This document shows positions 12,541-45,913 of a stretch of 64,000 nucleotides of DNA, in pieces (position 1 is the stretch's first letter; each line of letters begins with the position of its first letter). A program made the translations under genes and the position numbers. The notes under the pieces were generated by a model. It did no database searches, had not been told where the DNA came from, and saw nothing but the letters and a program-made list of their open reading frames with translations. The DNA is taken from the NCBI GenBank assembly GCA_040954595.2, contig CM082576.2, positions 19,329,028 through 19,393,027 on the forward strand, in the 5' to 3' direction. This DNA comes from Balanoglossus misakiensis (taxonomy: Eukaryota > Animalia > Hemichordata).

Positions 12541-15080
12541 ACTGTTTTAAATTTTTTCATCGGTTTTACTTTAAAGGATGCCCACAAATTGCAACAGTAA
12601 ATATTACTACAATATGCCAAAAATAAAACTTTCTTCACATCTTGACTAAAATGTTGAAAATGTCTCAATAGCATGTTTGCTCTAACACAAAATGCTCTTC
12701 TCTGTCGTTCAATATCTTCATTATCACAACCCTCACAAGATATAACATGGCCCAGATAGGTGTGTACAGGTACAAACTTTAAAGTGATGTCATTAAGTTT
12801 AACCGAAGGAATTCTTTGAACGCTCATATTCTTCCCATTAAAAAGCATGCACACAGTTTTACTAGAATTATAAATTATATCATAATCATTGCCATAAATT
12901 TCACAAATTCTAAGAAGACGGTGTAGACCCTTAATACTTGGACTGAGTAGAGTCATGTCGTCAGCGTAACCTAAAGTGTTAGCGCTGACACCACACATGG
13001 TACAGCCAACTTTGGCTTTACAGAGTGCATTGATAAGATCATCAATGTAGACATTAAAAAGATAGGGAGAGAGTACTCCCCCTTGTCTTACACCGTTAGA
13101 AACAGAAAACAACTCTGAGGTTTCATTACCCCACAACACAGTAAACAATTGATTTCTGTACCATTAAAGGTCACATGTCATGCTTTGGAAAGTTTTCATT
13201 TTTCCACGTCAAAAGCTCACCTAGGGTACCTGTCTATGCATTGCCTATTGTGTCGGTTCCGAAAAATGTGCACGAATGCCGGAATTTGCCACCTTTTTTC
13301 ATGCCTGTGATCGGGGAGCCACTTCGCACTCGAGCCAGGCGAAGGTATTTGCATATGGACAAACAAGTACACTATGTCGTAGTGTACCATTCTGTTTACA
13401 GTAAAGTGTAATTATCGGTCCATGAGTAATTAAGTCCACAGACAAAGATAAGCTATATAAACAGTGTTCAAAGCAAAGGAAGCCCTTGCCTCACATTGCA
13501 GGCAGAGGATTTACAAAGGTGTGAAAGACTATTTGTCCACATCAAGATAAGTCTTCGGCTTAACTTCGAAAAGCCCAAAACAATCGACTGAGTTGGGTTA
13601 GGGGTACACGCCCACCCGCCACTTTTACTTGCTTGTTATCTAAGCACAAGGGGCAAAACGCATTGCAAGATAGTAACATACGTTAACTTCAAGACCCAAA
13701 TAGTGATTTTACACGTGGTTGTATAGGGCATGGCATGGGACCTTTAATATAAAATTCGTACAGCATACAAGGGAACATTCCTGTCGATGAGCTTGTTAAC
13801 CAGTTTAAAGTGATTAACTCTGTCAAAAGCTTTTGAAGCATCCAGAAAACAAGTAAACACTGGTCTTCCATTGCTGGTGTAGTAGCTAATGATTTCTTTA
13901 AATGCAAATAAACACAGGTCAGTTGAATGTTCTCGCTTGAAACCAAATTGTAAATAATGAGAGGTAAGAAACTCCTCACAACGAGAAAGTAAAATAGGCT
14001 CAAAAACTTTAGAGAAAACAGTTGCTAGTGCTATCGGCCGGTAGTTACTGGCATCACTACAAAGCTTAGTTTTATCCTTAATTGGAACTAAAATAACGTT
14101 GATAGCCTCAGTTTGCAGGTAACCATGAACAATCAAGTCAAAATGGGTAAAATAGAGGAGTCTGAGAATTTGAGGTGCTCAGCTGAAATATTGTCAATGC
14201 CAGCTGTCTTATCGTCAGGTAACTTATGTATAGCAGAAATTACTTCTTCTTCAGAAACATACATATCAGAAGAAAATTTAACATACTTCATTTTCTCCTC
14301 GATGTCATTTTTACCAGTCTGAGCCTGGACAGAATTCAAAATATCACTGAAATGCTTGTGCCACATAATTGCAATTTCACTCTCACCAGTCGCTCCACCT
14401 ACAGTGTCAGAAAGCGGCATTTTTCTGCTAGTTTGCTTTCTGACTTCCTTCCAGAAGTCGTTCTGTTTGTGGCAGCGTAAATTGTCAGCCATCTTGTCAG
14501 CCCTATTTTGATTCTCAATCTTTTTACAAGCACGTAAAGCATACTTAAAACGAGCTCTGGAAGATTTCATGGTTTCAAAAAGCGGGCCTTGTTAAGGTTT
14601 ACCCCCATTAACCCATAATAAAAACATGGAACGGGCATAGTCGTGACTTTCTTTTACAAAATCGTTCCAGCCAGGCACAACATGAACTTTCTGGTGAAAC
14701 TTACGCCTAATGGTATCTTTTGCAGCACAATTCAATGCGTCCACAACACTACTATAACAAGTATCAATTGCCTGTAAATGCGAAGGGTATGTACAGTTCA
14801 CATTAGTGCAGAATAACTCTTCGGATAAATTAATCTTATCAACCTTGGCTTTGGTACAACGGGTGTAGGCGGATATATTCTGCTGTGACAATTTTTTTCC
14901 AATCAACTCGAAAATTACATTGCTTGAAGGAACTACTGCTGAAGCATTCATCAGCAGAAGTGTTGAAATGAACCTCTATTGAAACAGGAATATGGTCGGA
15001 GTCAACAACATTGCAAAGACTCGAAATTGAAAGAACATTGCTATAAAAAATTTTAGTGGTAACACAGTGGTCAATCCAAA
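12541..15080 (-). pseudogene. Internal fragment of an RTEX/RTE-type LINE ORF2 (APE end plus RT), disrupted
   Basis: WIDHCV..SDHIP (APE end), PGWNDFVKE..ARFKYALR, NYRPIALATVFSKVFE, FLDASKAFDRVNH, GVRQGGVLSPYLFNVYIDDL, YADD. Stops and frameshifts at ~14592 and ~14136; split by an insertion at 13168-13743. Confidence 0.88.
13168..13743. mobile_element. Non-autonomous Kolobok-like DNA element inserted in the LINE RT
   Basis: TTAA TSD (13164-13167, 13744-13747); TIR AGGTCACATGTCATGC / GCATGGCATGGGACCT; removing it rejoins the RT frame (VRILY*WYRNQLFTV). Confidence 0.85.
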
Positions 15081-16410
15081 CTCAGCGTAATTCAATAAAA
15101 CGCCCTAACACAGCCTGAACTCCGATAATGTGTTGTCCCAAAATTCATTCCGTGGAAAATAATCACTGGTCTGTTTACGTATTTCAGCCGATTTTCCAAG
15201 GACTACTGCAACTCGCCAGAAGTGAGTAGCCTGCTAATGAGATCTCCACAACATTACGTAATGACGGTCAAAGTCCGATGCCCCAGTGTCCGTCCTCAGC
15301 CCACCAAAAAATGCGAAAAAATATTACAAAAATCTTCTTCTCAAAATCGACGTGGCCTAGGACCTTGAAATTTGGCACAGGGGATTTTGGCCACATGGTC
15401 TACAAAAATCGCGAAAAGAATGTACATGCCCCCATTAACGTGCAAATTAGGTCAATTTGAAAATTTCGCTCGATTATAGCCACAAAGTCACGTGACTAAT
15501 TACAAATTCAAAGGGCAGGTGCACCAGTACTCATGGGCCCCAACCACCGTGCCAAATTTGGAGGCGCACCTGCCGGAATTTCAGAGAAAAACGGGCGCAA
15601 AAAAAACGACTCAAGAAGAAAGAAGACAAACTCCAGCAATAACAGAAGGGGACCAAGCGCCTGAGGGCTCTTGGTCCCCTAAATATGGGACTAAACTTGA
15701 CAGATACCCGGAATATTTTCCTATTTAGGATACCTGGTTGCATTTCCACCTAAAGGCGTCCTATTGGCGTGGAAATTTTATAACTTGAAATCGTTTGACT
15801 GGGTGATAGGTATTAATATCTTATGATGTTATAAAACACTTGGCTCGCCGAAGGTAAGGACCGATTATAGCGTCAGTCGTGTCATAAAATATATATGAAC
15901 GTCATGGGTCAATAAACTTGATGGTCCAATAAAATTTAATGGTTCGTAAAACTATTGTGTCCAATGTCTGCAGAGTATACTGGCTGCAACATGTGTATGA
16001 GTCAGGATTAACGGCTGTAGCCATCAACCCAAAAGGTGAACGTCCTATTCTCACTAACTTAAATAGGTTTTGCGACCTAGTTGAGTGATAAAAACCTTAT
16101 GATAAAGTCGACACAATTTCAAGATGACGATGTGCAAATGAGAGTTCATAAGCTAAAGTAAAGTTCAATGAATTCTATACAAAGTTCAAAAAAGATTTTT
16201 TACTAAAGGAAGACATGAACAAACTGATATCGTCTCTTCATATTCGTACATGTCCAACTGTTGTGATTTGACCCCCCCCCCCATGGTACATGAACCTATT
16301 ACTTAGTACACACTTAAACAATTGGCATTTGAAGTGCCTTGCTTGACAGTGTTTAATGCGGTGGTCAGCCGCGTTTATCTCTCGCCACTTCATGCATCAT
16401 GTCGCCTTAA

Positions 16411-16714
16411 AGGGACAAACTCTCTCTCTCGTCGCCCTTTTCTATTAATTATGTTTGATACAAGACACCGTTTATATTAATGGGCATGTGTATATGTAGT
16501 GAATGAACGTTCAACCACACACAACTTCCATCCTGCTTGTATGATATGAGAGTAAAAACTCGCCCAAAATGAATTAATGGTAGAGACCGATTTTTCAGTT
16601 TTGCGAGTTTTCGCTCTCGTGTCTACATGCGGGATAGAAGGTGTGTGCGGTTGAACGTTGCATCACTATATATCCACATTTACATTAATATAAACGGTGT
16701 TTTGTATCAAACAT
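16411..16714. mobile_element. Kolobok-like MITE family, copy 1 (right end lost)
   Basis: TTAA|AGGGACAAACTCTCTCTCTC..ATTAATTATGTTTGATACAAGAC; internal foldback; homologous to the copies at 17329 and 26881. Confidence 0.75.
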
Positions 16715-17328
16715 GGAAAAGGGCAGCGAGTTAAGGATGTACGATCAGTAAAATTGAAAGCATTGTCATTTCTTTTAATCGTGAATTTTCGTTTCTGATT
16801 TGTATGTATAATGAAAATCCATTTTGGGTCACTGCACTTGTTTTCGACTTTAAACAAGGCCGTGAATTTAGTCGACAATTGAAGAAAACTGCTAACGGTC
16901 AGCATTTTCTACCAATGGTTTGTCTATGGATACAATATTGAACAAAGTTTATCTCAAAATAGAGCGTGATGAATTTATTTTGATTTGTCGGAGCTATGTG
17001 TAAAATTTCATGAAAATGACAATAGTAGAAGTGAGTTTTCTAACTATTCTCCATGTACTCCTATGGGAAGAGACACAGGCGCACAGTTTACCAGTTGACG
17101 ACCTCTAAAGAGGAAACGGGGGGGGGGATGATGAAAGGTTTAAGACTTACAGATCACAACTTAAAGAGCCATTCAGAAAGAGGCTTAGAGTGGAGTATCA
17201 AATCGGACGATACCACTGACTGGTGGAGGAAGACAAAATAAGCAAACTGAGTAGATGAGTGCTCAGATTTCTTCAGAGGACCAAACGTTTCAAAGATATA
17301 AACAGAACATTGTGGCTGTATTCATTAA

Positions 17329-17619
17329 AGGGACCAAGTCTCTCTCTCGCTGCCCTTTTTCCATTAATTATGTTTGATACAAGACTGCGTTTATATTATT
17401 CTACATGTGGATATAGTGAATCAACGTTCAACCATACACACCTTCCACCCCGCTTGTATAGACACGAGAGTTTTAAAAAGTAGCCAAAATGAATAAACGG
17501 TCTCTACCATTTATTCATTTCGGGCGAGTTTTTACTCTCGTATCATACAAGCCGGATGGAAGTTGTGTGTGGTTGAACGTTCATTCACTAACATAAACGG
17601 TGTCTTGTATCATGTCCCT
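17329..17619. mobile_element. Kolobok-like MITE family, copy 2
   Basis: TTAA|AGGGAC ... GTCCCT|TTAA; internally palindromic. Confidence 0.8.
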
Positions 17620-18640: not shown

Positions 18641-19403
18641 ACCTTTCATGCTTAAACCCCTGTTCTTCTGTTATAAACTTTGAAAACCGTTCGTTTTCAG
18701 ACTGCAGATTGCTCGAATAACGCGGCACACTGCCGAAACAATAAAACAAATACTAGTGGGAGCTCATAAAATAAAATCGCTCAACCATTCCGTCGTCCTG
18801 AGTGACCTCAGCCACATTAATTCCGACGTCTTTTTAGGGTCATGAAAAAAGTCACAAATAAGGTATTTCCCCTAGGTCCACCTGAAGCAAAAAGTTTTCG
18901 TTTCGACTCCATCATTCCGAATAGTAAGAAAGCAACAAAATTGAAAAGACAGATGTAAAATGCAATCTCTCTCACGTGGTAACGTTTGTAACTATGGCAA
19001 ACACCGTGAGATATATTTTCTAAATTTGAGATTGAGTGAAAATTGAATATTTTCCAAATTAAACTGTATAAAACAGTGTAATGATATGGAAATGGAAGAA
19101 TTCAACAAAGAAATAATTTAATTTCAAATATGCCTACATACTTTGCCATTTTTTTCCAGTAGAAACAATTTTTTTCCTAATTTTCAATTAAATGACTGCC
19201 ACATGATCTTAGTTTTTCCATGAAAAAATATAACAATTATTTCGCTTGTCAGTGAAAATATATTTCTAGTGGTTGGAAAAAAATAGAATAAGTCAAATCT
19301 CTGAAAATCTGTCTTTATTCAAGAACAATAAAAAAAATTAGTGGGGGAAAAACCAAAAAATGAACACACACACTAAAATTGACATTTTCTATGTATTATT
19401 TAG

Positions 19404-21570
19404 GAGGGGATAGAATTTGTTGCCGCCATTCTTGGGAGGGGAGAAATGAGGGCATAGCATTTCGTGCCGTCATTTTTGGGAGGGGAGAAATGGGGGTATA
19501 GAATTTGGTGCCGCCATTCTTGCGAGGGGAGAAATGGTGGCATAGAATTTGGTGCCGCCATTCTTGGGAAGGGAGAAATGAGGGCATGGAATTTGGTGCC
19601 GCCATTCTTGGGAGGGGAGAAATGAGGGCATGGAATTTGGTGTTGTCATTTTTGAGATGGGAGAAATGGGGGCATAGAATTTGGTGCCGCCATTCTTGGG
19701 AGGGAAGAAATGAGGGCATGGAATTTGGTGCCGCCATTCTTGGGAGGGGAGAAATGGGGGCATGGAATTTGGTGCCGCCATTCTTGGGAGGGGAGAAACG
19801 GGGGCATAGAATTTGTTGCCGCCATTATTGGGAGGGGAGAAATGAGGGCATAGAATTTGTTGCCGCCATTCTTGGGAGGGGAGAAATGAGGGCATGGAAT
19901 TTGTTGCCGCCATTCTTGGGAGGGGAGAAATGGGGGCATGGAATTTTGTGCCGCCATTCTTGGGAGGGGAGAAATGAGGGCATAGAATTTGGTACCGCCA
20001 TTCTTGGGAGGGGAGAAATAGGGGCATGGAATGTGGTGCCGCCATTCTTGGGAGGGGAGAAATGAGGGCATAGAATTTGGTGCCCCCATTCTTGGGAGGG
20101 GAGAAATGAGGGCATAGAATTTGTTGCCGCCATTCTTGGGAGGGGAGAAATGAGGGCATGGAATTTGGTGCCGCCATTCTTGGGAGGGGAGAAATGGGGG
20201 CATGGAATTTGGTGCCGCCATTCTTGGGAGGGGAGAAATGAGGGCATAGAATTTGGTGCCGCCATTCTTGCGAGGGGAGAAATGGTGGCATAGAATTTGG
20301 TGCCGCCATTCTTGGGAAGGGAGAAATGAGGGCATGGAATTTGTTGCCGCCATTCTTGGGAGGGGAGAAATGAGGGCATAGAATTTCGTGCCGTCATTTT
20401 TGGGAGGGGAGAAATGGGGGTATAGAATTTGGTGCCGCCATTCTTGCGAGGGGAGAAATGGTGGCATAGAATTTGGTGCCGCCATTCTTGGGAAGGGAGA
20501 AATGAGGGCATGGAATTTGGTGCCGCCATTCTTGGGAGGGGAGAAATGAGGGCATGGAATTTGGTGTTGTCATTTTTGAGATGGGAGAAATGGGGGCATA
20601 GAATTTGGTGCCGCCATTCTTGGGAGGGAAGAAATGAGGGCATGGAATTTGGTGCCGCCATTCTTGGGAGGGGAGAAATGGGGGCATGGAATTTGGTGCC
20701 GCCATTCTTGGGAGGGGAGAAACGGGGGCATAGAATTTGTTGCCGCCATTCTTGGGAGGGGAGAAATGAGGGCATAGAATTTGTTGCCGCCATTCTTGGG
20801 AGGGGAGAAATGAGGGCATGGAATTTGGTGCCGCCATTCTTGGGAGGGGAGAAATGGGGGCATGGAATTTGGTGCCGCCATTCTTGGGAGGGGAGAAATG
20901 AGGGCATAGAATTTGGTACCGCCATTCTTGGGAGGGGAGAAATAGGGGCATGGAATTTGGTGCCGCCATTTTTGGGAGGGGAGAAATGAGGGCATAGAAT
21001 TTGGTGCCGCCATTCTTGGGAGGAGAGAAATGAGGGCATATAATTTGGTGCCGCCATTCTTGGGAGGGGAGAAATGGGGGCATGGAATTTGGTGCCGCCA
21101 TTCTTGGGAGGGGAGAAATAGGGGCATGGAATTTGGTGCCGCCATTCTTGGGAGGGGAGAAATGAGGGCATACAATTTGTTGCCGCCATTCTTGGGAGGG
21201 GAGAAATGGGGGCATAGAATTTGTTGCCGCCATTCTTGGGAGGGGAGAAATGAGGGCATGGAATTTGTTGCCGCCATTCTTGGGAGGGGAGAAATGGGGG
21301 CATGGAATTTGGTGCCGCCATTCTTGGGAGGGGAGAAATAGGGGCATGGAATTTGGTGCCGCCATTCTTGGGAGGGGAGAAATGAGGGCATAGAATTTGG
21401 TGCCGCCATTCTTGGGAGGGGAGAAATGGGGGCATAGAATTTGTTGGGGAGGGGAGAAATGAGGGCATAGAATTTGTTGGGGAGGGGAGAAATGAGGGCA
21501 TGGAATTTGGTGCCGCCATTCTTGGGAGGGGAGAATTGAGGGCATAGAATTTGGTGCCGTCATTTTTGGC
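19404..21570. repeat. Left subterminal tandem array, 44-bp unit, ~49 copies
   Basis: Unit GAATTTGGTGCCGCCATTCTTGGGAGGGGAGAAATGAGGGCATA; contains a 924-bp (21-unit) higher-order duplication. Confidence 0.97.
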
Positions 21571-22139
21571 AATTACTTTGAAGAAATGCTACTCTTCAAA
21601 GCTCCATTTGCTATAACTTTATGCAATGTTTAAAGCATTTTTATGGATCTTGTGCAAGATTATTTTTCAAATTCATGAAACAGGATAAAATGCCCAGTGT
21701 CCAGCTTATTAACACAATCTATATGTATATAGTAAGCGTTGTTATTGTGTAAAATTTGAATTCAACATTACCAATGGCTGTTGCACCGAAACAAGTTATG
21801 TTGACAAGTGGAATCCTGGGTATATAAGCATGCTGTTTTGAGTAGAGCAAGAAACTGCATTACTGGTAGGTAAACACAACAAAAGTCGAAATTTTAAAAT
21901 CTGAACACTCAATTTTTTGTTTAAAATCCCCTTTTTAATTTAACAAGTGAACAATTAAATTAGAGACAGCTTGCAGATAATATAAATGCTGTGTTAGTAA
22001 ATATTAAAACAACTTTAAAACTACAGTATAAATTATAATAGGACCCAAAAATGGAAAAAAATGCTCAAAAATTTTAACAAAACTATGGTAACTCAGATCA
22101 TGAAGAATGTCTTATAAGACAAAATAAATATATTGCAAA

Positions 22140-22400
22140 TAGAAAAAACAATATATCAGGACTATATCAATCTGACCAGTGTTTGTGGAGTTTCCGAGTT
22201 TTGACCAATTACACATTTTCTCAGCTTATTTTTGGAAATGACAACTTCATTTGAACAAACTCCCATCTACAGCCTGGCCTATATCTGTACACTAAATATC
22301 AAGGTGATATGCTAAACAATTTCCATTTGTTTGATGTGGACATCCATCCATCTATCCATACATAACAGATCCAATAATGTCCCATTGTATAATACACATA
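22140..22400. mobile_element. Probable short DINE-1/HINE-like insertion downstream of the passenger gene
   Basis: (CATC)n microsatellite followed by a GTCCCATT...AATGGGAC terminal hairpin. Confidence 0.4.
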
Positions 22401-22490
22401 TACCAAATGGGACCTGAAATTAATACATACATATCACTGTGTAGAGTTTACACACCCCCATAATGCGTTTTCCGTGACCCCACTCTATAA

Positions 22491-25400
22491 TCAGTCTGAG
22501 TCATCTACTTGCGATGCCCCGCTCCATCCAAATCTCTTTGTAGCTGCTGAGTAGATGTTGCCGAGCTGGTCTGCGTCGGTCTCCAAACAGATGCATGGTC
22601 TTCCTAACTGTAAAGCAGTAGTAAAGGCACTACCTGCAAACATAGTTGAGAAAAAAAAGTGAAAAAGTTATCAATCAATCATCATCACACAAGTTTTATC
22701 AGAGTGACTTTATTTCAAATTTTAACTTATTTTTCATTTTCATTGCTTTGTTACAGTACACTCTGACCACACATTTGTTTGCTTTGAAATAAAGACTTCA
22801 GTTTCTTTAACTGAGAGGATACCTGACATTCAGACATTGTTCTAATAAGTGTTTAATTAAATTTACTGTATTATAGGGATAATAAATAGCTTCAAAAATC
22901 TAAATTATGAACAATAAAAATGTATGATTTTTTGTTTGTTTTGACCTTCCTAAGACACCAAAGACATACATAACAAAACCATAACAATAACAATTTAAGC
23001 ATGATATCTTTCATTGCAATCACTTTTGAATTTCTATACAAGTACACTTTTACAGTAATGGTGCATCAGAAAATATTTTACAAAAACAACATTTATAAAA
23101 AATACCTTGATTTCTTGTTACGTCAAGCATCCATCTTCTTTCGGCACAGAAAACTTTGATAAGTTCTGACAAAAAATCCTCCATCTTGTCGGCCTTTTCA
23201 ATAACCCAGTGGTTATGATGGGGGCCATTGCCAAAATTTGTCTGCAATCTGTTAAACACCCCTGTCTCAGACCAGTAACCAACAACAATGCCTTTCACAG
23301 AATTCCACAAGGTCCTCGAAGCTATAAGAAGTGAAAATATGGAAGAAACACATTAGTCAAACACTGGCTTCAATATTTGTCAATCATTACAGCAGGAACT
23401 TTGTCATATGATGATAACTTTAATACAAGTTCATTTTTGGACTGCCACTGCATGAAAACACATTGAAATTTACAACAAATATTATAGCACTTACAAGATT
23501 TGTTGTACTGCAGGAAGTAGAATCCTTCTTCAACTTTGCAGCAGGTCTTCCTCATTATTTTCTTTACTTTTTCGATATCTGCTACTTCGCATAGTGCAAT
23601 AACATTATAATAGGGTATGCTGCAGTCCAGATTAATTGATTTAATAGTTTTTAGCTCTTCTGTGAAACTGTTTTCACACCAGTCCTGAAAGAGATAATAG
23701 AACATAGGTTGTAACTGATAATGAGACAGACACATTACACTGAATTATGAAACAATATGGAGTCCAAGACAGCAACTGCCTATATTAAAATGTTGGTCAG
23801 TAAAATTGAAAGTATTGCTTTAATTGTGGATTTTGACTTCTCATGTGTATAAATATAGGGGTTGTTGCAGTTGTTTTCAAAATACAAGGCCGCAAATATA
23901 GCCGATAATTGAAAAAAACTGAGCTATATACTGTCCAATTTTATGAAAATGATTAAGTAGAAGTTTTCTAGCTATTCTCAATGTAATTCTATGGAAAAAG
24001 ATGAATGCGTACACATTTGCACAGATTTCCCGTTTATGTTTTGCACATACATCCTTAATGACATATTTGAGAATTTAAAGTAAACTTTCCTTAATAGAGA
24101 GTTCTTCTTAATACTACAATAGACAGGTAATATATGATTCAAGTTGTGTTACACAAATTGCTATACGGTATATTTAAACTCACCTCAGGAATGCTGGTCA
24201 TCGTCAGTTCTGCACCATTAAATTCTGGACAACTTTCCCGTATTTTATCCAATGATAATGATGCTGTCTCCACATCTAGCACACAACCTCTGATGTTGTT
24301 TTCTGCTGTAAAAATGTTGTGGGCCGTAGATTCTTCAGGGACACCACCGGAGTCCAACATGTCTCGTAACTTTTTACACTCCTGCTGGAGTTCCGGTGGT
24401 GTTCCTCTGCTGAACTTCAGGCCCACAAATCTTGACAGGTATGCCCTATCTGCATAGGCTGGCAACTTCTCCTCCAAGACGCTCCATGGCATTTGGAGTT
24501 CCTTGATGAACGCCTCCTGAACCACTTTCATCTTGCGAACGTCTTTGGCTTCTCTGTTCATTTGCTGTAAATTAGTTTTTCCATCAACAACATCTTCCAG
24601 AAATTCACAAATGGTGTTCTCGTTTAAATGCACCAGGTTACTAAAAAGGTATACTGGTATGTCCGGTTTCACCATCAGATTTTTCTTCGTAACTTTCTGA
24701 CCAGCCAGTACTCCCGTTTCATAGCTCTCGAAAATTTGATCCAGTTTCACTGTAACAGTCTCAGGCTGTTTCGCCAGATTTAAAATTGTTTCCATATCTG
24801 TATCGTTCTGCAATAAATCAATAGAAGTATTATTACAAGGACAGTACACTTAACTCTGCCATATAACAGCAAGCCTTGTTACCTACATCCAAAATTGACA
24901 AGATACAACAAGAGAGACAGTTTGGACAATGGCAACATTCATGTGTCTACACAAAGCCTTACTGAAACATTAGTTGGATCCCCCAACCACATTTAGGTAA
25001 TTCTACATTTTAACAGAGAGCTTGTCTTTGGTAATATGCATGACAGAGGCCAGATAAACAATAAATTTCAGTGGATACTGGTTGACACAGGAGAAGGACA
25101 TTTGGTAAGGTGAACCATTTTCCCATAATATTTTTTTTTGTATTTTGGACTAAGGTGTCTTAGATCTAAATCCACTTACTATGGATTTTAATTTAGTGCA
25201 ACCAATCTTGGAGATAAGAACAAAATCTGTCCATGTCATTTGCTACATTGTAATATATTGGATTGCACCCCACTAATTAAACTATGATTTTTCCCAATTA
25301 AACTTACTTGTTGTAAGATGTTTTTACAGGATCTCCTCCATTCCTCGGAGGCAGATTTAACAGATGTCAGTCTGTCCCGACATATGTGGACCTGAAATAG

Positions 25401-28400
25401 GAATATGAAATAAAATTAAAATAATACAAAATCTAATTCTTGCCTTAATTGCCATGTACAATTTCTTTGCTCTTAATTTCTATGTAAACCGGCAAAGATT
25501 ATTCTTGACACAAGACATCTTTCAAAATGAAATTTTGAAAATTATGATTAAAATGGGTCCGTATTGAAAATGAAAAGATGAATAATTTTTGAAATACGTT
25601 TTTGATACTGTGTCTTAAATACAATGGAAAACCCATGAATTGACATTTCAACCCATTAATTGCTCACTTAACTTAAATTTAAAAATAGACCAGTGTGATG
25701 TATTAGTATTTAACTCGTTATTTCCTGAAAAATCCATGGCATAAACAACTGTTGCAAATTGTGTTCACTGTTTAATTAAGTCAATCAGATCAAGCCATTT
25801 TGGACTGTAACTTACCTTTTCTTTGGTACTGAGCTTGTGGACCAAATGTTGCATATCATTGTGGCGATTTGCAAGCCACATGGACTGTTCTTCACTCAGT
25901 GAACAATATATCTTGCATTGTCTTGACTTAAATAATTGCCTATCTTTATACTTCTCAGCAAGTTGCTTCGTTGCAGTGAAATTGTGTTGACCGCCTAGGA
26001 TGGTGTACTTGTATCCATTAACCTACATGACAATTGACACAAGAAATGAAATTGAGTTTAACTAGCACACGTGAGAAATCACTAATGTCGTTTGAAATTT
26101 TTTTGTTGAACTCTAATTCTGAAACTGAAAGCCATGCAATCAAGACAATTGTGGGGGTAAGCTTAGTGATATTTCATACTCACGTTATTCTTGTTGAAGT
26201 CATCCTTCTTAATGTCCACCATAACAACATATGGGCTGTAAGACTCATCAGTAAATTTCTCCATACTCTCAACCAGGGTCTTCACGAAAAAGTCGTCCAC
26301 TTTTCTTACTTGCTTTCCCAAGTTCAGATTACAGGTGTGAATACTGAATACACCTAAAAATAAATGTAAATGTAAATGTAATTAGCTTGAGTAGTTCACA
26401 TCATTGAATTCTCTTGGACTTAGCCAGCTTAATACATTAACAACCAAAATTCGTACTGACTAAAAGTTTAGGCCAAATAGTCATCCTCCCCATGTACCCA
26501 AACCAAGCTAGTCTACTCTCATGTGACATGTTCACTGAATGCATTATGCTTCATTGGTTATTTTGAGCTGTACAATCAGTTTTAGAGAAAAAAGACAAAT
26601 GTTTTCTCAAATGTGCACATTTCATTACAATTCAAACACATCTTTTTAATGTTACCACAAGGAACCTGAACACAAAATGCCAAAGCAATCATAAGCAGTT
26701 TCAAAACAAACTGATTGTTGATTAAAACAGCAGACAAATATTCATGTACAAACATAAAATGGGAGCTAAACAAAGATGTTTAGTTGCACCCACTGCTGGA
26801 AGAGTGAATGGAGCTGAAAGTACATGTATGTCTTGTAGTATGAAAGGACTGGATCATGACCCAGATCCTCTCATGTTTAAAGGGACAAAATCTCCTTCTC
26901 TCATTGTCCATCTTCCATTAATTATGTTTGATACAAGACACATGACTGTTTATGTTATCTACATGTGGATATATAGTGAATCAACGTTCGACCACACACA
27001 ACTTCCATCTCGTTTGTGGGATATGAGTGTAAAAATCTCGCCAAAATGAATAAATGGTAGAGACCGATTATTCATTTTGGCGAGTTTTTCACTCTCTTGT
27101 GTACAAGTGGTACAGAAATTGTGTGTGATCGATGGTGAGAGAGAGACTTTGTCACTTTAACATACATGACATTGCTTCTCAGGCTACATGTATACAAATA
27201 CAGCATCCTTACCAAACAAAACAAAGTAATTCATCTTAATATCTCACCTGGTATTGCGTGATCATTAACAATATTAGTCATTGGATCTTCTGTTAAATTC
27301 ACCGAGTCTATATGACTTCTTCTTTTTTTCCTTGTCAAATCTGGAATTACTTCACCTGAAGAAGGCCTTTTTTTTCGCGATTTACCAGCCGGGAAACTGA
27401 AATTGAATTGGATGAAATAACATGAAGATCTTCTTGAAAGGACAGTGATTCAATCTCTGGTAATCAGAGTTGTGTTTGCCACCTTGGCAAATGCTGTAAA
27501 CCATACACCTTAACAAAAACTGTTTCCCAAGGGTCTATGTCTCAGCCACAGCCAACTTGCTATCAAATATTGGCCCAGCATACAATGCCCAAAGTGGGCC
27601 TGATCTAGTTTTCTGTAATATTAACATACCAGTATATCATTGAATGAACTGTAATTCTACCAGAATCAAAATTTAGTGCTGTAGCAAGTTTGCAATGTGC
27701 ACTCAGATAAACTAGTCAGCTCAGAGACAGTCATATAATCATTTGATTTCTGAATGGGTTGGAACAAATTTTTGCAAGACAGACTGGGCGTATTTGCACA
27801 ATTTTCATGGGTTATAACTGTTAACAGATGACATATTTTAAACTTTGCTCCTGATTGTTTGTCAACTGACCCAAATTACAAACAATAGCTATGTGACACC
27901 GATCGGAAAAGGTGGGCATTTTTCCCATAATTCAAATTACAGTAAACGCCATATTGGAAATTCTGCCAACTTTCCCTCGATTTTGCAAAAAATTGCGCGA
28001 CTTATACATGGCGAAAATGTTTTTTTTTTCTGAAAGAGTGACCTCAAAGCTACAACTTACAAAAATGTAGAAATCAGCTGGACCGGATTTTCCCTTTAAT
28101 GAATTGCAACTTACCGAGCATTAGAAGAAAGCTCTGGAGATACTCTGTCACCAGATGTATTCATGGCTGAACTGGAATCACTTGAAGGCCTTTTTTTCTG
28201 TGATTTACCACCAGGGCACCTGAAAGTGAATTGGATAAAATAACATGTAAGACTTGAAAGGAATGGGATTAAATCGTTGGTACTCAGAGCTGGAACTGTT
28301 TGCCACAAACCATACACCCTTGGCAAAACTGTTTCTCCTGAGTAAGCACATATCATGTGTCTTTTTACAGATAATGGTCATCTCTGATATAATGTTGATT

Positions 28401-29496
28401 ATATGTGCGAGTTAACTTTGCCTATATGTAATGATGCTATGCAATCAGCAATGGTGCTTTTGCATAAGATTTACAAAATTTAAGAGAGTGGATGATTTAG
28501 TAGAATTTTATTTGATTGCACATGTATTCTAACTTAGATTGTGGTTTATACAAGCTAAGTGTACTTACGGAGAATTATCTTCTTGACAAGACGAACTTGA
28601 AGATTCTGTATCACTTGATGTATTCATGGCTGAACTGGAACAAGATGCAGATTCTATACCAACAGACTGCATGCTTATATCTGATTCATCACTTGATTCT
28701 CCTGGGGATACACTGTTTTTGTCAACAAGTTCATTAAACTTTGCTACAAAATCGACAGCCAGTTTGATGTCACGGAAGTTGCGGCAAAAGTCATTCTGAT
28801 GCCATTCAAATTCTCGGCGATAGAATGTGTGTTTATAACCTTCAAAGATAAGCTGAAAAACAAAAAAAATGTTAATGAATCATGGTTATTCATCTGATTT
28901 TTTGTGAGTTTACCTGTTGAGATCGCCAATTGAATACATCGAGTTTATCTCCATGGGTAAACAAACGTTTTAGAAAGCCAGCAGTTCAAGCGTTAGAAGA
29001 ATTTAATCGCAGCATTTTTGGAGTCGGTTATAACCAGTGAGGAGGTTGAAGTAGATAGGGAAAGAGTTTTTCCACCAGATAAAATCGAATTTCGACCGAA
29101 AAGCTGCGGACCGGACCGCAGACTCGTCATTTTTGGCTGTGGTGGACGCCGTAACGTACGGTGCGTAGACGTAGGGAGCACAAAACATGTACGCGGGGCT
29201 AGGGTGTGCGGGATAGTGTAGGAAAAATACATAGACTAAATAAAATTACAAACCTTTATGCCGTTGTGTCCAAGTGCATTTTTACTGTTAGTATCGACAA
29301 CTGCCTTCTGAACCGCAGACACCGGTTCTTTCACGTCCGATTCTCCTTTCTTTCGACCAGATTTGGCGAGTCTAACACCTTGTTTGGGACTGACAGCGCT
29401 CCTCTTGCCTGTTGTAGTAACGTAAACGTAAACGCCACCAGCAGTGTCGCCTTCGCCATCTTCTTTAACTAGCCACCAATGTCGTTTGTACGTCAT
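22491..29496 (-). CDS. Spliced passenger gene: Ser/basic-rich N-terminus, ParB/Srx-like domain, helical linker and degenerate beta-class N4/N6 DNA methyltransferase-like domain (at least 723 aa; ~804 aa with the putative first exon)
   Basis: Ten GT-AG exons join in phase without stops: 28852-28569, 28219-28115, 27396-27248, 26353-26184, 26022-25816, 25391-25308, 24807-24184, 23684-23495, 23321-23106, 22633-22491. First exon 29496-29254 is phase-compatible but uncertain. Motifs: QVRKVDDFFVKTLVESM..YTILGGQHNFTATKQL..WLANRHN; GAELTMTSIPEDW; FLSELIKVFCAERRWMLDVTRNQGSAFTTALQLGRPCICLETD. Confidence 0.8.
26881..27156. mobile_element. Kolobok-like MITE family, copy 3, in an intron of the passenger gene
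   Basis: TTAA|AGGGACAAAATCTC ... GAGACTTTGTCACT|TTAA; homologous to the copies at 16411 and 17329. Confidence 0.8.
27900..28098. repeat. Dispersed repeat fragment with a TTAA-type terminus; related copy at ~3990-4060
   Basis: ATTGGAAATTCWGCCAA...TATACATGGCGAAAA shared with 3990-4060; ends CCGGATTTTCCCT|TTAA. Confidence 0.5.
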
Positions 29497-31126
29497 ATTC
29501 TCCTCTCAAAAGCAGAAATGAAATGATGCAGTGCCACTTGAGCTGAAGCATTTTAAATCCTGCTCTGACCCCTGACATTTACTCACACTCACAGCTTGTC
29601 CAGGCCCCCACGATCTTTTCCAAAGCCTTGGGACTGTGACGTGTGAATGGACTGTGAAAGAGTGTAAAACTCCGGGCGACTTCCTGTGTAGCCTCCGTCG
29701 CCCCTGGATTGGAAGACGACCAAATGTTCCCCTCCCCGTGGCATTATGTCCGTAGTTTACTCCATATCCTGCATACACATAGATTGAATGCGTAGTTGTA
29801 GCTTCGCTTTGCAATTTCTCCACGTACCATGCCTGTCCTGCATGAACTGTGTTTGGTATTGCATCGATCAAAAAATTGTAACGATTTTTCGAAAAGTTGA
29901 AAATGTTTGCCATAAACTCGCAGCTGATCAGTGAACACGGCCCGGAAGTGTACATACATATATCGCTGTGCGAACTGGCCAACCTGTGAAGACAAAATCC
30001 ATTCGCACTACTAATTCTCACATCACATCAACGACTGATCAGCTGGCTGATCAACCGGAAATTCACCACATGTGCATAGCAACCGGCCAAACCAGCTGAT
30101 TGCCGCGCGCGCACAGTGAACGCCTGTGGAACTGAACACTTGATCTTTCGGGACCATACCCATCGGTGTGTGCCTTTACTGGGACAACGGTCGTCTAGAG
30201 ATTAAAACGTCTATCTTCATGTATGTATGAACTTCTATATCAGTTCCTCATACGCGTAATGTTGCTGTAGTAACTGTTATTTGTAAATGCAGCCAAAAGT
30301 TCTCTTTGAATAGGTATGTGTGGAGGAATAGCTCGGGTCACAATATCTTGCACACCCCCATAAATTAATGGGATCAGTCAGGTCATGCTGGCAGAGTCCT
30401 CGAAGTTTTGCTGACTTTTGGTGAATGCTGAAATTGCCGATGACACCAACTGGAGTGTATTCCCGAAACAACAGGTATGTGATTCACTTTAATTTCTCGA
30501 AGTCAAGTATATCATTTTGACTCTCTGTCATTGTATATTACTATTACCACGGATGGATGACCGCGAAGTCACAGTTGTGAAATTTTTGACTGCCAGGCTG
30601 TGTACACAGGTCTGTATGCTCCCGGCGTTATGAAGCATCGATTCCCACTGACTGTAGCCTGATATTGATATAACATGCTACTCATATGATATAACATGTT
30701 ATATCATATCAGGCTACAGTCAGTGGGAATCGATCGCCTATGGTTTAACGCCGGGAACACACAGACCTGTACGCAGGGCTTAGGCTGAGTGATGCCTTTC
30801 TACTTCCGGGCTTCGATCATGATCGGGTGATATGTACATGTTGTGTGATTTCTTGAGGTGTGTAGGTGGGCCACGCTAATTACATGCTTCATTATTTCGG
30901 AATCACAGTGGTGACATCACAAAGCTTTGAATGTGAATTTGTGAAGTTATTGGAAACCAAACAAAATGTGTCTGTTGATGCAGGCCTCAAGGTTCAACCT
31001 GGCTGTAGATGGGGTTTTGTTCAAAGGAAGTTGTCATTTACTCATTGACAACAATATTTAAGTGGACGGTCAAAACGTGTTCCGTATGTTTACATGACAA
31101 TATTATTTCTTGCCCCGGTAGGTGTC
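29497..31126. promoter_or_regulatory. Divergent intergenic/5' UTR region between the passenger gene and the transposase
   Basis: Head-to-head gene arrangement; CpG-richer than the introns; oppositely oriented CCGGAAGT (ETS-like) sites at ~29942 and ~30803; candidate non-coding exon donors at ~30313 and ~30475 and an acceptor at 31121. Promoter function is inferred. Confidence 0.45.
30602..30771. repeat. Imperfect ~170-bp palindrome (MITE-like)
   Basis: CAGGTCTGT..CCCGGCGTTA..ATCGATTCCCACTGACTGTAGCCTGATA mirrored by TATCAGGCTACAGTCAGTGGGAATCGAT..TAACGCCGGGA..ACAGACCTG. Confidence 0.8.
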
Positions 31127-34100
31127 ATGGATTCCTCTTGTTCTACAGTTGTAGAAGAAAGTTTTTCATCATCTGAGGGGATGACAAGTGTGGAAGAAAC
31201 CGATACATCTGTAGAAAACTCTTTAAACTCCTCTGTATTGACAGTTGTGGAGGGACTGAATGACTCTGTGACGTTAGATATACCTGATAATTATCATGAA
31301 ACCTCAAGTGAAAATGATGTATGTATTCTCGACCCGCAAGAACCTGAAGTGGCCTGTTCATCTAGCATGTCTTCATCAGACATTGGTGATTTTGATGGGA
31401 GTTTTGGTAACTGTGAAGAAGATAATATTGTCTCATCCAGTCCTGTGAAGAGGCGACGCTTTTCTGCACCACTCAGGGAGCCAACAGAAGTTTTAAAGAT
31501 GGCCTGCTGTGGGGACAAGTGTATGACCAGTCTCTCGCAAAATGACATCATGGCATCAGAACAGTTCTTTAAGACATCACTTGATGAAGCAGAGCAAGGA
31601 CAGTTTATCCTTAAACAAATTCAGCAGCATTCATACACATGTTATGGGAAAACAAGATCAAAACTTGTTTTGAATTTGGTCATACGTGGAAGATGTGTAT
31701 GTGAAGTAGCTTGGTGCAATGTATTTGACACATCTTATCACAGATTTACAAAGTATAAGAAATTAGTGAAAGGTGGTGCCACTAGTGTTTTGCATGGAAA
31801 CAGGGGAAAAACAAGGATGCAGGAGAAAACCTCACGATCAATAGCATGGATGAGGTTCCACTTTGAACGGATCGGTGATTACATGCCACACAAGAACATT
31901 GTTCGCCTTCCTACATTTCTTACCAAGGGTGATCTGTGGACACGTATGAAGACTCAGTTGGCTGAAGGATTGTTCTTTTCACACATATCATATGGCTACT
32001 TCTGTGATATATGGAGAAAGCACTTGCCAGAATTTCGTACTGGTGTGGTAAGTATAAATTCTTTGAGGACTTTAGTCTTTTCAGCATGCTATAGACAGTA
32101 GAACAAAATAAGAAACTGGTTGACACACACAACTAGAGAGCTGAAAAATAGGCAGCCACTTTTGATGTGCCTTGACTTTTCTACCTTTTTATGAAGTTTC
32201 TTTCCAAGAAAATATTGATAATTGACTGCACCCTTTACTATGGAGAAATCATTTGAAAATAGGGGCTTGTAAATAAAATGCTGCTGATTGCAAGAGAGTA
32301 AATTTTATATCTTTTGTTGCAGACCTCAGACTTTTCTGAATGTGGTGATTGTGCACAGATACGGGGTGCTATCTCAAAAGCAGCTACTGATTCTGAACGA
32401 CAAAACCTCATGAAAGTTCGAGAAGTTCATGAGAAGAGGGTTGAGTAAGTTACAGTTCCTTGATTTAATCCAGCTACATAAGTAATGATGCGTGTAGATT
32501 TCACAAAGTACATTGTAATTTGTATGTTACATTGTCTCAGTACTGGTACTCAGCACTCAGTACACTGTTAAAAATATACACACTGAGAAAAACTTTAATT
32601 GACATAGGACACTGTTTAATTTCAGAACAGAAAGGGCAGTCTATCATGATGCCAGGGAAAAGGCAGTGCGACAGCCAGATGATTTGCTTGTCATGATAAT
32701 TGATGGCATGGACCAGAAAAAGACATATTTTCCAAGGTTACTCCGAGAGAAAAAGGACACAGAAAACCTAGGAAAGATCCCTATGCATGCAACAGGTGTG
32801 TCTACCTATTTATTCTAGGAAGTACATGTACATGTACCTGTAATCTGTGCTGTGTAAAGATATGTGGTTGTAAAATGTGTTTTTTGCGTGTTAAATGTGT
32901 AAACATTGTAAATGTTGACAAATGAATTCTAGTCTGGACTAGAATAAAAATATCAACAATAACATTGTAGTTGACATGTGAAGACACAGGAGTATAAAGC
33001 AATTCAGAATTGATGCGCTAACCTTTTTAATTTTATGTTTTCAGTCTTTTTAATTTTTTATTCAGTTTTGGTCAAGAAAAATTCAGCTTGATGGTGGCTT
33101 GTTCAAATCTTCACATCCACTATGGTATAAAAATGCAAGAGCCCATTTTAATGGCTTGTATGTTAAATATATGTTTCTTAATTTTTTTGCAGGAAGTTTG
33201 ATTCATACTAATGTCCCTGAAGGCAAACTAGCAGTAATGCGACTTGACATCCACAACTTTCCACATGATTCGAACATGACTATCAATAATATCATGTGGA
33301 ATTTGGTTGATAACAGAGAAAGGCTATCAAAAAAGCTTCATCTTCAATTAGACAACTGCTACAGGGAAAACAAAAATCGGTATCTTCTGTCCTTTGCATC
33401 TCTGTTGGTGGAGTATGATATATTTGAAGAGGTAGGTCATTACATGATGTTGAGAAATTTACACACAAGCACATACACTCACACTGTTTTGTTTATACCA
33501 TTACCAAGTAATATAAGTGAAGTACCTTCCCTTAGCAGTAGTCGTTTCAGTAAAAGTGTGCAAGTTACTACAATAGAAAAATTGTTAGTAAGATTTGTTT
33601 TTAATGTGTAATACGAGTACAATCAGGTGATGTAAGGCTAGATAATGGGTTGGGTTAGGAAAGAAGACCATCTTGTCATCTGTAATATTGATTTTTATCT
33701 TCTGTTTGTTAGGTGGTGATGAACTTTCTACCCGTGGGTCACACTCATGAAGGTAAGTACTTTATTAATTTCGTTTAATACATGTCAACAATTAGTATTT
33801 GAAGAGCCTGAAAATATCCAATGATTCATGTGAATTTGTTAGATTATGATTTTCCACATTCACTACATACCTGATACATGTGATTTACAGGTCACTTGAA
33901 CAAATTATCTGTTAGTATGAAAGTGGTGCAAATATAATATAAATGTAATAGATGCCTAAAATTCCTCATTTTTGATCAAACTAATCATGTGTGCCATACT
34001 ATTTATTCTGCAGACGTTGACCAAATGTTCAGTCGAGTGTCTACCGCACTGAGGAAAGCAAATTCCTTCACCCTGGCAGGTATGAATAATGAATTTTCTA

Positions 34101-36929
34101 TGTCAGGGGTTGCTTCCCGTCCTTCATATTTGTCAGGGGAACTCCTACTTTATGTGAAGGGTGGGTAGACTAGGGGTCCTAATTCTTAATTTATTATCAC
34201 TATTAAATATCATTTGCCTGGTATTGACTCCCTCTGAGAAATCACTATTGCAATTCCTGTCTATATAGATTCAGCTAAGGATTTGAAAATAAACAAATAC
34301 ATTGGAGTCTATGATACGAAAACTAAATGCTGAAGAGAAATTAGAGACAGACATTTGGCTACAGTGTCATTGATGAAAATTGAACGGGGCCCTTTACCCT
34401 CATACCTGTTCATATTTCAGATCCCATCACGATCAAAATGCTGACAATGTATCTTGGGATTTCTTCATTTCAGAATTAATGCACAATATTCATGACAGCT
34501 ATACACCATCAATTAAGGTCGAAGAAGTGAAGTATCTCTTCAATGTGAAAGAATGGCTAGAGCCATATATGGCTGGTAGATTCGGGGGGCATTCAAAACC
34601 CCACAATTTCAGATTTCGGAAATGCAGTGGACGAGCTCGGATGCACTACAGACGATGGTCGACTGATGCCTGGCAACCAACTTATGATGAAGACAATGCA
34701 GATGCACAAGGGCTGGTATGCCTTGAAGTAAGTTATACTGATATACATACTGTACATCATGTATCCTGGTTGACCAAGGATTTTTGTGCAATATTTTGAC
34801 TTTTGCATTTTTTATGAAATCAGAAATTTCTCCAAAGTTTAATTGTTGATTTATTTTGTAAATTTCAAAACAATGCCACATAAAGAACGCTTGAAAACAG
34901 CGATTTTTAGTACTGATACTGTGACACTAGGCATACGTATGGATTAAATGTTTAGAAGTAAAACTGCCATTAGCTTCTAGTTTTTGTCCGGTTATACTTA
35001 TACAGTTTTCATGCTATAACGGTTATGCCTTTAAGAACAAGAGTGTCTAAGCAATTTTATAATGTTTTGTTTTCCGACAATGACACCATAGAACCGGTGT
35101 GACATACCTGATCAGGATTGAAGACATAACAGATATCCTGCTTATAATGAAAAGAAAATGCACTATTGCTATTTTTTATTTGTAGATAAACATCCCACCA
35201 ACACTGTGAAGTTGTGAAAACAGACATACATTGAAACCTGAAACGTGTTATTTCACACACCTCTCACATCAATACACCTGTCTACGAAAGTCAGATAAAA
35301 GTGTTAAAAATCAGTGTAGTTTAAAGTTCAGATTTCACTCGTGTATTTTGTGACACCTTTGGTTTTGAGTTGTTCAGTCAATCTTAAAGTATTCAATTAT
35401 TTAATTATTTTCACAGACTGTGCCAGATGTTAATGTTGTGCCCAGCATGGTTGAACCATCCCTCCTGAAACTTGATCTCCAGAAGATAAGAAATGACATT
35501 CCAGACAAATATGGCAACTATATGCCCCCAGCAACTATGGAACATCTGAAAAATTTTATAAATAGCATCGAGCAGTATGGACAGGTGAGTTTGAATTACT
35601 CATATGGCTAGTACTCTTGTGTTATAACAGGCAAGTGTATGGCAACTTCATGCCTTTATGTAGAATTTTCTCAGTATGTCATTTTGCCATGTTTGACACT
35701 GCAAAATAGTGTTATACAAAATAATGATGATCCAGAGTTTACTAATATCACACAACTGTACTTAACACCTATTCTCATAAACTATTTTCAGGATTTGTCT
35801 ATCGTCCTTATAAAGTTATTGCAATTTAAACAAATTAATTAAACAACAAATCATCTTTAAAACTTTGATCTACAATTGTGAGAAAACTAAGATGTCTTTC
35901 GAAACACGTTTTTGCTGAGTGACATTATTATTACTGTTTTGTTGGTTTATACTTTTTCAAGTAAATTTTAATAAGTTCCTGAGTTTTCCATTAATGTATA
36001 GTCCTTGCTAAAAACCAAATGATTTGCGATTAAAAATATTTTGCAGCAAACCTCACAAGCTACCTACATTAGCTGTTTAAAAGATTAATAAAGGTCAGCA
36101 CACACATACAAGGTCACATGCTGATTTTGTTTCGAATTGTCACTCTACACTGACTATAGGTAGCAGAAGAACCTGATGAGTGGCCTCTTCAGCAATTAAT
36201 TGATGACGCTAGAAGGAGAAGAAGTACAAGACTTGAAACTGAAGGTGACATACCAGAAAATGTTCAAAGAATTCAAGAACGGATGGAATCTGTGTGTCCT
36301 ACAGTAAGTGCCTGCACATTGAGTTTGCAGCGGTGTTTACTTTCTTAATAGAGATTTAGCATCTGTTTGCCATCATGTACATCGAAGCAGGAGCTGTTTT
36401 TAATGTTGGGAAAGTCTACATGTCTGTTCATATGTTCATGTGTGTAGATAGCCACAAAAAGTCCTCATATTCTAGTGAATTTCTTTTTTAAAAATAAACT
36501 GTGATTATTTAGCAGATAAAGTAAGCTCTAGCTCAAATGATTATGTGAAGCTATTTTGTCTTACTCTAGGTAACTATTGGAAGGCAAGGACGGCAAGCCG
36601 AAACAGCTGAAGTTGTAGATGATTTCTCAACATTGGCTGTAGGAATGTTTGTTGCAGTATATTGCCCTGAGTCAGAGGAGGTACCTCAAATAGGAAAGGT
36701 GGTCAATAGGGATGATACCTCTTTTACCATACACTGGTACCAGGGCAAATGGAACACATCATGGAAACCATGCTACCTCACAAAAGGACGAGCAAAAGTG
36801 CCATGGGAGGACAAGCAAGATCTGGCTGCAGCAATCCTGTGGGACTTTGACTTCAACGGCAGGGGAATGCTAAGCAAAACAACAAGGACTATCTTGGCAG
36901 AAAAGTATGAAAGATTTCATGCTGTATGA
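31127..36929 (+). CDS. Intact 10-exon Sola-like (DUF7869-type) DDD transposase, 827 aa, with a C-terminal Tudor/SH3-like domain
   Basis: Exons 31127-32047, 32323-32444, 32626-32795, 33193-33431, 33713-33752, 34014-34079, 34474-34727, 35417-35584, 36160-36303, 36570-36929 join in phase (2484 nt). Motifs: CCGDKC, VCEVAW, CGDC..H, IIDGMDQKKT, LQLDNCYRENKN, FLPVGHTHEDVDQMFS. Confidence 0.9.
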
Positions 36930-37334
36930 ATGTCTGTAACAAACAGATGTTGAAAGGAAACCCTTCTTGTTTAACTTTACAGCTGTCAGCAGTCCTTATT
37001 AACCAGCGTAGACTGCCCATTATCAACTTGATGTTTATCCTTATCACTCTACATTATCAGGCATTGGAATGTGTAAACTACCTAGTAATGGCTGTGCCAG
37101 AGAGAAAACAAGTGTCTATTGTCAATGTTTATCACTATTGTCAATGTTTATGACAGGTGATAAACAAGTGGAATTCAATACAAATTAACACTTCTGGACC
37201 CTTCAGTGTCCACTGTAACTTTGCTGGTTGTATATGTCATTAATTTTTTTGTTTCCGAAGTATGACTGCATTCAGTGTTTGATTGCATTTAATTCATTTG
37301 CTACTGCATCAGCCACAATGTCCACGCAATCCTC

Positions 37335-40209: not shown

Positions 40210-40212
40210 AAT

Positions 40213-40228
40213 TGGTGGAGACATCCGG
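40213..40228 (+). promoter_or_regulatory. Primer-binding site (tRNA-Ala-like)
   Basis: TGGTGGAGAC 3 nt after the LTR; complementary to a tRNA 3' end ...CUCCACCA. The tRNA identity is inferred. Confidence 0.75.
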
Positions 40229-40250
40229 AGTAACTGAGCGACACGAATAT

Positions 40251-45721: not shown

Positions 45722-45913
45722 GAAATATGTATTTGAGCAAGAAAAGAATGAAAATGCGTCATAGTCGTAAAATTCATCTCTTTTGTCAACATCATACTCG
45801 TTTTTCTCTAGAGATTACTCCTATATAGCGTGATCCTCATCTTAGATAGTCGCGATGCCGCGTATTTATTGCACCCCTTTTCTCTTACGTAAGCCTAGTG
45901 TCCACCGCATGAC

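Follow-up and report, generated by a model that had tools for sequence, protein, structure and literature searches.

The closest described system to the gene considered here is the accessory gene of Sola1-1_Ec32, a giant Sola1 DNA transposon of Ectocarpus (PMC12477816). That element is described as 21,549 bp long, with a 4-bp target-site duplication (TSD), the termini AACCG/CGGTT and, on the opposite strand, an accessory gene that encodes a ParB-like domain together with an N4C/N6A methyltransferase (MTase) domain; the supplement labels this gene 'Ectocarpus specific'. We analysed a 64,000-nucleotide stretch of the hemichordate Balanoglossus misakiensis genome (assembly GCA_040954595.2, contig CM082576.2, positions 19,329,028 to 19,393,027; hereafter the window), which contains a giant element that by description has the 4-bp TSD, similar termini (AACACCG/CGGTGTT) and the opposite-strand gene with ParB-like and MTase domains. 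It differs from Sola1-1_Ec32 in residing in an animal, in its 33-bp terminal inverted repeats (TIRs; 282 bp in Ectocarpus), in a pair of inverted arrays of a 44-bp unit, and in the degenerate motifs of its MTase. The design is already known from Ectocarpus, and the window gene is an animal version of it in which the ParB pocket is remodelled and the methylase probably dead. The literature searched, a scope outside which Repbase and most subscription papers lie, holds no report of such a ParB-MTase transposon gene in animals.

Proteins that act, or are proposed to act, on the element encoding them have been described in two further settings. The red-algal Plavaka protein PAG3 is described as ParB-like, as adjoining tandem inverted repeats and as proposed to act on its own element (10.1101/2025.02.11.637652), although PAG2 and PAG3 belong to another transposon superfamily and PAG3 joins ParB to a 2-oxoglutarate oxygenase. 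Arabidopsis VANC is reported to have been shown to act on its own element, with targets that often form tandem repeats (PMC5735166), but it too belongs to another transposon superfamily and is unrelated in sequence. For the window gene, hereafter the passenger gene, we give even chances to the proposition that its protein binds its own element. Equally balanced, in our judgement, is the fuller reading of a dimer without catalytic activity, bound to the DNA of its element, probably at the 44-bp end arrays, and aiding expression or movement. The element and its parts are as follows, in window coordinates.

18996-18999, plus strand: left TSD, GGCA, repeated at 38853-38856
19000-38852, no strand assigned: whole Sola1-like DNA transposon, 19,853 bp, with TIRs and 4-bp direct repeat read in the sequence
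19000-19032, plus strand: left TIR, 33 bp, starting AACACCG, identical to the right TIR at 31 of 33 positions
19404-21569, plus strand: left subterminal array, about 50 copies of the 44-bp unit, candidate binding sites (TRF)
22491-29496, minus strand: passenger gene, 11 exons, 804 amino acids (gene model and Ptychodera homologues)
31127-36929, plus strand: transposase gene, 10 exons, 827 amino acids, DUF7869 (Pfam PF25273, E=1e-22), no internal stop in the model
37367-38599, minus strand: right subterminal array, about 28 copies of the 44-bp unit, inverted relative to the left array (TRF)
38820-38852, minus strand: right TIR
38853-38856, plus strand: right TSD, GGCA

The duplicated GGCA and the short TIRs agree with what defines Sola1, and the Sola1-like label rests on this 4-bp TSD and on the resemblance of the termini to those of Sola1-1_Ec32. 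A 6-bp TSD (TGGCAA) fits the locus equally well, and was rejected since the base at 19000 recurs in two further copies. The transposase, whose candidate catalytic acids lie in DGMD (374), LDNC (457) and GHTHED (493), is encoded divergently from the passenger gene, with 1.6 kb between them. The element is inserted at no fewer than three sites, because in contigs of one other sample (two runs) two further left flanks join it at position 19000. Contigs of the other sample also contain an empty-site junction in which the left flank runs directly into the right, although, the flank being a high-copy repeat, this junction may represent a different target copy and not an allele. Contig depth, which we do not take as copy number, is flat at 73-90 across the passenger and transposase genes outside embedded repeats (run X1).

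The passenger gene is an open reading frame (ORF) of 804 codons with no internal stop, interrupted by ten introns that are all GT-AG. Its product is predicted to comprise an N-terminal domain, a low-complexity linker with basic clusters, a ParB N-terminal domain (NTD), a helix-turn-helix (HTH)/helical domain and a pseudo-MTase. The order of exons is backed by RefSeq proteins of Ptychodera flava that are 53-77% identical to the model; in a tblastn search with three of them, ten of the 11 exons were found in order, the exception being the low-complexity exon 3. The parts of the gene that can be assigned are these.

28569-29496, minus strand: exons 1-2 (29496-29254, 28852-28569), predicted folded N-terminal domain (AF2), weakly PH-like
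26184-26353, minus strand: exon 5, residues 261-317, start of the ParB NTD with Box I-like Arg R277; QVRK from 26312
25816-26022, minus strand: exon 6, residues 318-386, Box II-like GGQHN (G327-N331) at 25995-25981 and Box III-like HN (H371, N372), RHN at 25866-25858
25308-25391, minus strand: exon 7, residues 387-414, helices leading to the ParB-type HTH region (AF2, structural alignment)
24184-24807, minus strand: exon 8, ParB-like DNA-binding domain continued as far as about 24537, then a helical linker and the first part of the MTase, whose motif IV is degenerate (SIPE, 24195-24184)
22491-23684, minus strand: exons 9-11 (23684-23495, 23321-23106, 22633-22491), amino-MTase fold of the beta class, motif I degenerate (VTRNQG)

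The PH likeness of the N-terminal domain is a lead only (VIA Z at most 5.1). Exons 3 and 4 (28113-28300, 27247-27560), together with upstream intron sequence, resemble an internal duplication. A basic KKRP cluster, which may be a nuclear localisation signal, is encoded in both exons. Intron 4 holds a repeat like a miniature inverted-repeat transposable element (26877-27127), about 250 bp long, dispersed, inverted in structure and very high in copy number, which also occurs at 16407-16730 and 17325-17598.

The passenger domain almost certainly has the ParB/sulfiredoxin (Srx) fold, an assignment that rests on structure models of homologues standing in for the window protein: P0005 for the ParB domain and P0003 for the MTase. 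P0005 is identical to the window protein at 95/125 positions (76%) of the NTD and is modelled by AF2 with pLDDT >90 across most of the domain. Its model matches Myxococcus ParB in Foldseek (E=7.7e-7), followed by Noc, Bacillus ParB and KorB, with sulfiredoxin at E=3e-3. In VIA-align, ranks 1-29 all belong to the ParB/Srx superfamily (ParB, Noc, KorB, PadC, Srx, SerK, SbnI or related; Z 6.3-10.9), and the first unrelated row scores Z 5.1. The top match, 7bnr (Z 10.9), aligns 186 residues at rmsd 4.8 and places model residues 272-516 onto 37-231 of the ParB chain, whereas Srx structures score lower (Z 7.2-8.4) than full ParB fragments of NTD plus HTH. From its own model, the ESM Atlas independently returned ParB_N clusters at TM 0.63-0.72. 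The initial annotation had proposed a ParB/sulfiredoxin-like domain, and these comparisons of homologue models point to that fold and to no other; the peptides it quoted all map to the minus-strand exons 5-7 (26353-26184, 26022-25816 and 25391-25308), which are in frame and have GT-AG junctions. Its start in exon 5 holds, but 25308..26353 is too short an extent, since the structural match continues through the HTH into exon 8, covering approximately residues 261-505 and ending near 24537. An HTH domain follows the NTD by structural alignment, as in canonical ParB clamps.

Sequence profiles were marginal; structure comparison was clear, and on it we regard the fold as settled. The family profile (alignment A1) had sulfiredoxin as its best PDB match (E=0.026), with GGxH aligned onto GGCHR; a ParB-only profile (A3, 65 sequences) found no ParB or Srx chain in the PDB; Pfam searches of single exons and of the Ptychodera homologues returned neither a ParB family nor an MTase; and PHROG ParB families matched one of ten homologues (E=3e-4). 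By features, the nearest Atlas clusters were eukaryotic clusters without a name (Porifera, Mollusca) and the fungal family DUF3723 (PF12520), whose feature score against the ParB-like domain is 0.95, hinting that DUF3723 is another eukaryotic ParB-fold family. The bacterial ParB/Noc/KorB CTP clamps (PF02195 plus HTH) share with the window family a superposable NTD and helical DNA-binding domain (Z 8.3-10.9) and the positions of the Box I Arg and Box III Asn. They differ at 13-18% identity: the window protein lacks the Box II Arg and Glu, has a pseudo-MTase in place of the C-terminal dimerisation domain, is encoded by a spliced gene, and is accompanied by no parS-like palindrome. We noticed no ParA-like ORF in the element, and the canonical combination of ParA with a palindromic parS was not found.

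The nucleotide pocket was compared across a ParB-domain alignment of 103 rows, including the window model and a few near-duplicates; equivalences to the ParB boxes follow motif register, and that of Box II was set by alignment to the Srx GGCHR. In Myxococcus ParB, R54, R95 and N127 are reported to bind phosphate, and Q52 and E93 to serve hydrolysis (PMC13229309). The window family keeps the Box I Arg (R277; R in 67/70 rows), the two Gly of Box II (93/97 and 96/97) and its His (89/97), and in Box III the His (H371; 82/90) and Asn (N372; 85/90), with a further His downstream in 66/89. The pattern R..G-x-[H/N]..N is kept in 50 of the 57 rows that cover all sites, from Chara to deuterostomes. The window Box II reads G328-Q-H-N331, with Asn in place of the canonical GxxR Arg and Gln in place of the hydrolytic Glu; Glu occupies that position in none of the 97 rows, and the residue following the Box II His is N in 27, S in 26, T in 16, L in 10 and R in 4 of them. 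Since both Arg and Glu are lost, canonical CTPase activity is very probably absent, in agreement with the doubt voiced in the initial annotation. That annotation described the arginine patch as lost (HN for HR). The Arg is indeed missing, but this is not decay of the window copy, Arg being present in so few rows family-wide. Because the loss is general, whereas this most conserved domain retains the Arg of Box I, GGxH and the Asn of Box III, the pocket is to be read from the alignment as remodelled rather than decayed. In each of six full comparisons no region was better conserved than the ParB NTD, exemplified by P0006 (95/125 identities, versus 111/184 and 62/142 elsewhere) and P0008 (51/120, versus 48/180 and 56/215). 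Sulfiredoxin, SerK, SbnI and DGQHR/DndB proteins share the G-x-H of Box II, but they retain the Arg after the His, unlike the window family, and Srx, SerK and SbnI lack the HTH. Srx also requires a Cys at a site that is Gln in the window protein, which is multi-domain, and Cys in only 6/97 rows. The window has GGQHN rather than DGQHR, and no NCBIfam model for DGQHR/DndB matched in ten homologues.

The MTase lies C-terminal to the ParB module, in the order given by the initial annotation. P0003, identical to the window protein at 150/225 positions of this region, yields a model that matches beta-class amino-MTases, with CcrM the best (Foldseek E=2.4e-8); the Atlas agrees, and a sequence-profile match of the region to CcrM has E=3.2e-6. 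The permuted Rossmann fold, with motif IV before motif I, is that of the beta class, but the catalytic [DNS]PP[YFW] and S-adenosylmethionine-binding FxGxG motifs are replaced by SIPE and VTRNQG. Of the 27 rows reaching the MTase domain, 24 had letters at motif IV, and the fourth residue is aromatic in 0/22 non-Chara rows; the two Chara repeats are misaligned there and read directly as DFPY and DLPY. Motif I is retained in homologues from Holothuria, Chara and Riccia, and N6_N4_Mtase matches 6/144 members, four of them above the Pfam cut-off. Rotifer N4CMT and Marchantia DN4MT1 share the beta-class amino-MTase fold, of bacterial origin, in eukaryotes (N4CMT structure match E=3e-7), but both are active host enzymes with SPPY motifs, and the accessible parts of the sources mention no ParB domain for them. 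We claim no link to DN4MT1, for which TSPPY motifs and no ParB domain are described there. A change of SPPY to APPA is reported to abolish N4CMT activity (PMC8885841), and from its motifs the MTase of the window copy is, with high likelihood, inactive. P0051 of Chara braunii carries two ParB-MTase units in tandem, in which D-x-P-Y and FSGSG motifs are present, and appears from its sequence to be the best candidate for an active member. In P0089, P0115, P0148 and P0153 the ParB and helical module has no MTase behind it, so that what the family holds constant seems to be the ParB module. The last transposase exon (36570-36929) encodes what looks like a small beta-barrel, Tudor/PWWP-like by eye and without a Pfam match, which resembles the C-terminus of P0148 (pairwise E=3e-5) and not that of P0153; this likeness suggests domain exchange between transposase and passenger genes.

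A phmmer search with P0005 over 1.84 billion representatives returned 235 matches at E<=0.001, from which 150 were listed. Eight of ten clusters looked up could be named: Ptychodera, Holothuria (two), Exaiptasia, Actinia, Mytilus, Chara braunii and Riccia sorocarpa. Homologues are found in cnidarians, molluscs, echinoderms, Chara and Riccia. Every relative identified by sequence is from a eukaryote, although one cluster also contains a 56-residue bacterial fragment. The initial annotation envisaged an ancient horizontal acquisition since intronised, a view that kinship with ordinary eukaryotic proteins would undercut; the closest relatives are instead uncharacterised and multi-copy. Metagenome searches gave no loci with P0004 and three intron-containing loci with alignment A4. 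The intron before exon 6 falls at the same codon in loci L002 and L003, and that after exon 6 at the same codon in L001 and L002, at 39-53% identity. Because intron positions flanking exon 6 are common to such divergent loci, residence in spliced genomes is judged to be old, which bears out the early intronisation proposed before. At L003:1670-1994 there is a fourfold tandem repetition of the 5' part of the GGQH exon.

As to the source, ParB-N6_N4_Mtase fusions are reported to be enriched in phages (10.1101/2025.10.10.680097), so a prokaryotic or phage origin is plausible by analogy, with no donor found in the searches run. The phage fusions share the domain order of the window protein, and Atlas structure neighbours of its MTase part include phage clusters with ParB_N, but the window protein has lost the catalytic motifs and, among the matches listed, sequence similarity is confined to the MTase part. 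Phage tblastn searches returned 134 and 533 records, none covering 80% of the query, and the 20 rows listed per search match the MTase part only; three queries of IMG/VR found no close viral relatives, and the MTase region of P0009, used as query in a word search, matched nothing but P0009 itself. A ParB-domain tree of 61 of the 103 rows (rows shorter than about 110 residues omitted) is unrooted, and it is silent on donor or direction because its deep support is weak, long-branch warnings apply and it has no prokaryotic outgroup. Any horizontal acquisition, itself unproven, would not be special to the Balanoglossus lineage, with relatives across animals, Chara and Riccia.

The reading of a non-catalytic dimer draws on the element anatomy, the two intact genes, the fold of the homologues, the lost Box II Arg and Glu and MTase motifs, and the kept Arg, GGxH and HN. 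In such a mechanism the HTH would recognise element DNA, the 44-bp arrays being the obvious candidate target; the NTD would pair or dimerise as in ParB without CTP hydrolysis, the dead MTase would serve as a scaffold, and the transposon may benefit through anti-silencing or by having its distant ends brought together. A phage ParB has been reported to activate its partner enzyme even with NTP-site residues mutated (PMC13229309). Several points weigh against this reading. Subterminal arrays can be plain transposase sites. The 44-bp unit has no parS-like palindrome above chance, 26-94% of shuffles scoring equally, and neither ParB_N nor HTH_ParB of Pfam matched any of 144 aligned homologues at E<=0.01. 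The loci L001-L003 (2-4 kb) contained no transposase match that would place other animal homologues in transposons. Lastly, the window and a near-identical copy in the other sample differ at six amino-acid-changing and two silent codons in passenger exons, against one and three in transposase exons, among the 40 differences listed out of 124; at this short time scale they show no sign of selection. Such neutral-looking differences, and two degenerate enzyme sites, would suit a neutral hitchhiker without current function, but an ORF of this length with ten intact introns, conservation that is ordered and peaks in the ParB domain, and relatives across distant phyla make that improbable.

A pocket still able to bind a nucleotide or a metal, by way of a remodelled site rich in histidine (R277, H330, H371, N372 and the further His), and forming a ligand-gated clamp that loads at the arrays and spreads or bridges, is unlikely. 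The family-wide retention of the R..G-x-[H/N]..N pattern, H371 and the downstream His speaks for it, as does the best superposition of the P0005 model on nucleotide-bound, closed forms of ParB, although AF2 may prefer the closed form regardless of ligand. The ParB fold is reported to switch among CTP, ATP and GTP (10.1101/2025.10.10.680097), but in the binders tested by Kaljevic et al. in the same work substitution of the Box II Arg abolished binding of nucleoside triphosphates (NTPs), an Arg absent here from 93/97 rows, and the MTase occupies the place of the ParB dimerisation domain. The most specific form of the idea, with ParB-type loading at both 44-bp arrays, gated by ligand at the pocket, and spreading or bridging of the 20-kb element to counter silencing or to pair its ends, is more doubtful still. 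Slightly less probable than a ligand-gated pocket in general is that the protein works through the transposase or chromatin, as a scaffold, an activator or a modified-base reader by way of the dead MTase, with array binding left to the transposase. This would fit phage ParB-like proteins that activate partner DNA-modifying enzymes (PMC13229309), the inactive MTase domains that are described as travelling in DIRS1 elements (PMC4738411), the weakly PH-like N-terminal domain and the non-palindromic arrays; yet the ParB-type DNA-binding domain is structurally kept, unlike in those phage activators, which are described without one (PMC13229309). Least probable is an active DNA amino-MTase that the ParB module targets to mark its own element with N4-methylcytosine or N6-methyladenine. 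That role was proposed for the Ectocarpus protein (PMC12477816), and the Chara motifs and the N6_N4_Mtase matches speak for it, but the window copy has SIPE and VTRNQG, and the catalytic aromatic is missing from every one of the 22 animal or unnamed rows.

The surroundings of the element are repeat-rich. At 39708-47814 stands an apparently intact Gypsy long terminal repeat (LTR) retrotransposon, with gag (40068-41369), pol with a chromodomain-like C-terminal end (41345-45721) and an env-like third ORF (45899-46963); its two 502-bp LTRs are 100% identical, and the insertion is accordingly dated from sequence as very recent. About 16 kb of AT-rich satellite follow (48091-64000), built of a 78-79-bp unit with higher-order periods, and fragments of this unit adjoin the left flank of the transposon in other contigs. 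On the minus strand, 11063-11800 and 12489-14975 hold reverse transcriptase/endonuclease ORF fragments of non-LTR retrotransposon type.

We know of no ParB-type DNA-binding module in animals, and the eukaryotic example of the ParB fold named in the survey consulted is sulfiredoxin, which lacks the HTH. The genes described here add a large branch in eukaryotes, one that would escape ParB surveys built on Pfam. In the animal versions the methylase motifs are lost while the ParB domain is held tightest, which argues against the published idea of self-methylation, at least in animals. Should the ligand-gated clamp prove true, animal chromatin would have its first ParB-type clamp, and the question of how giant DNA transposons remain mobile would have a general answer. 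An intact, multi-site element that pairs the protein with its candidate sites makes the role of ParB-MTase genes in giant transposons directly testable.

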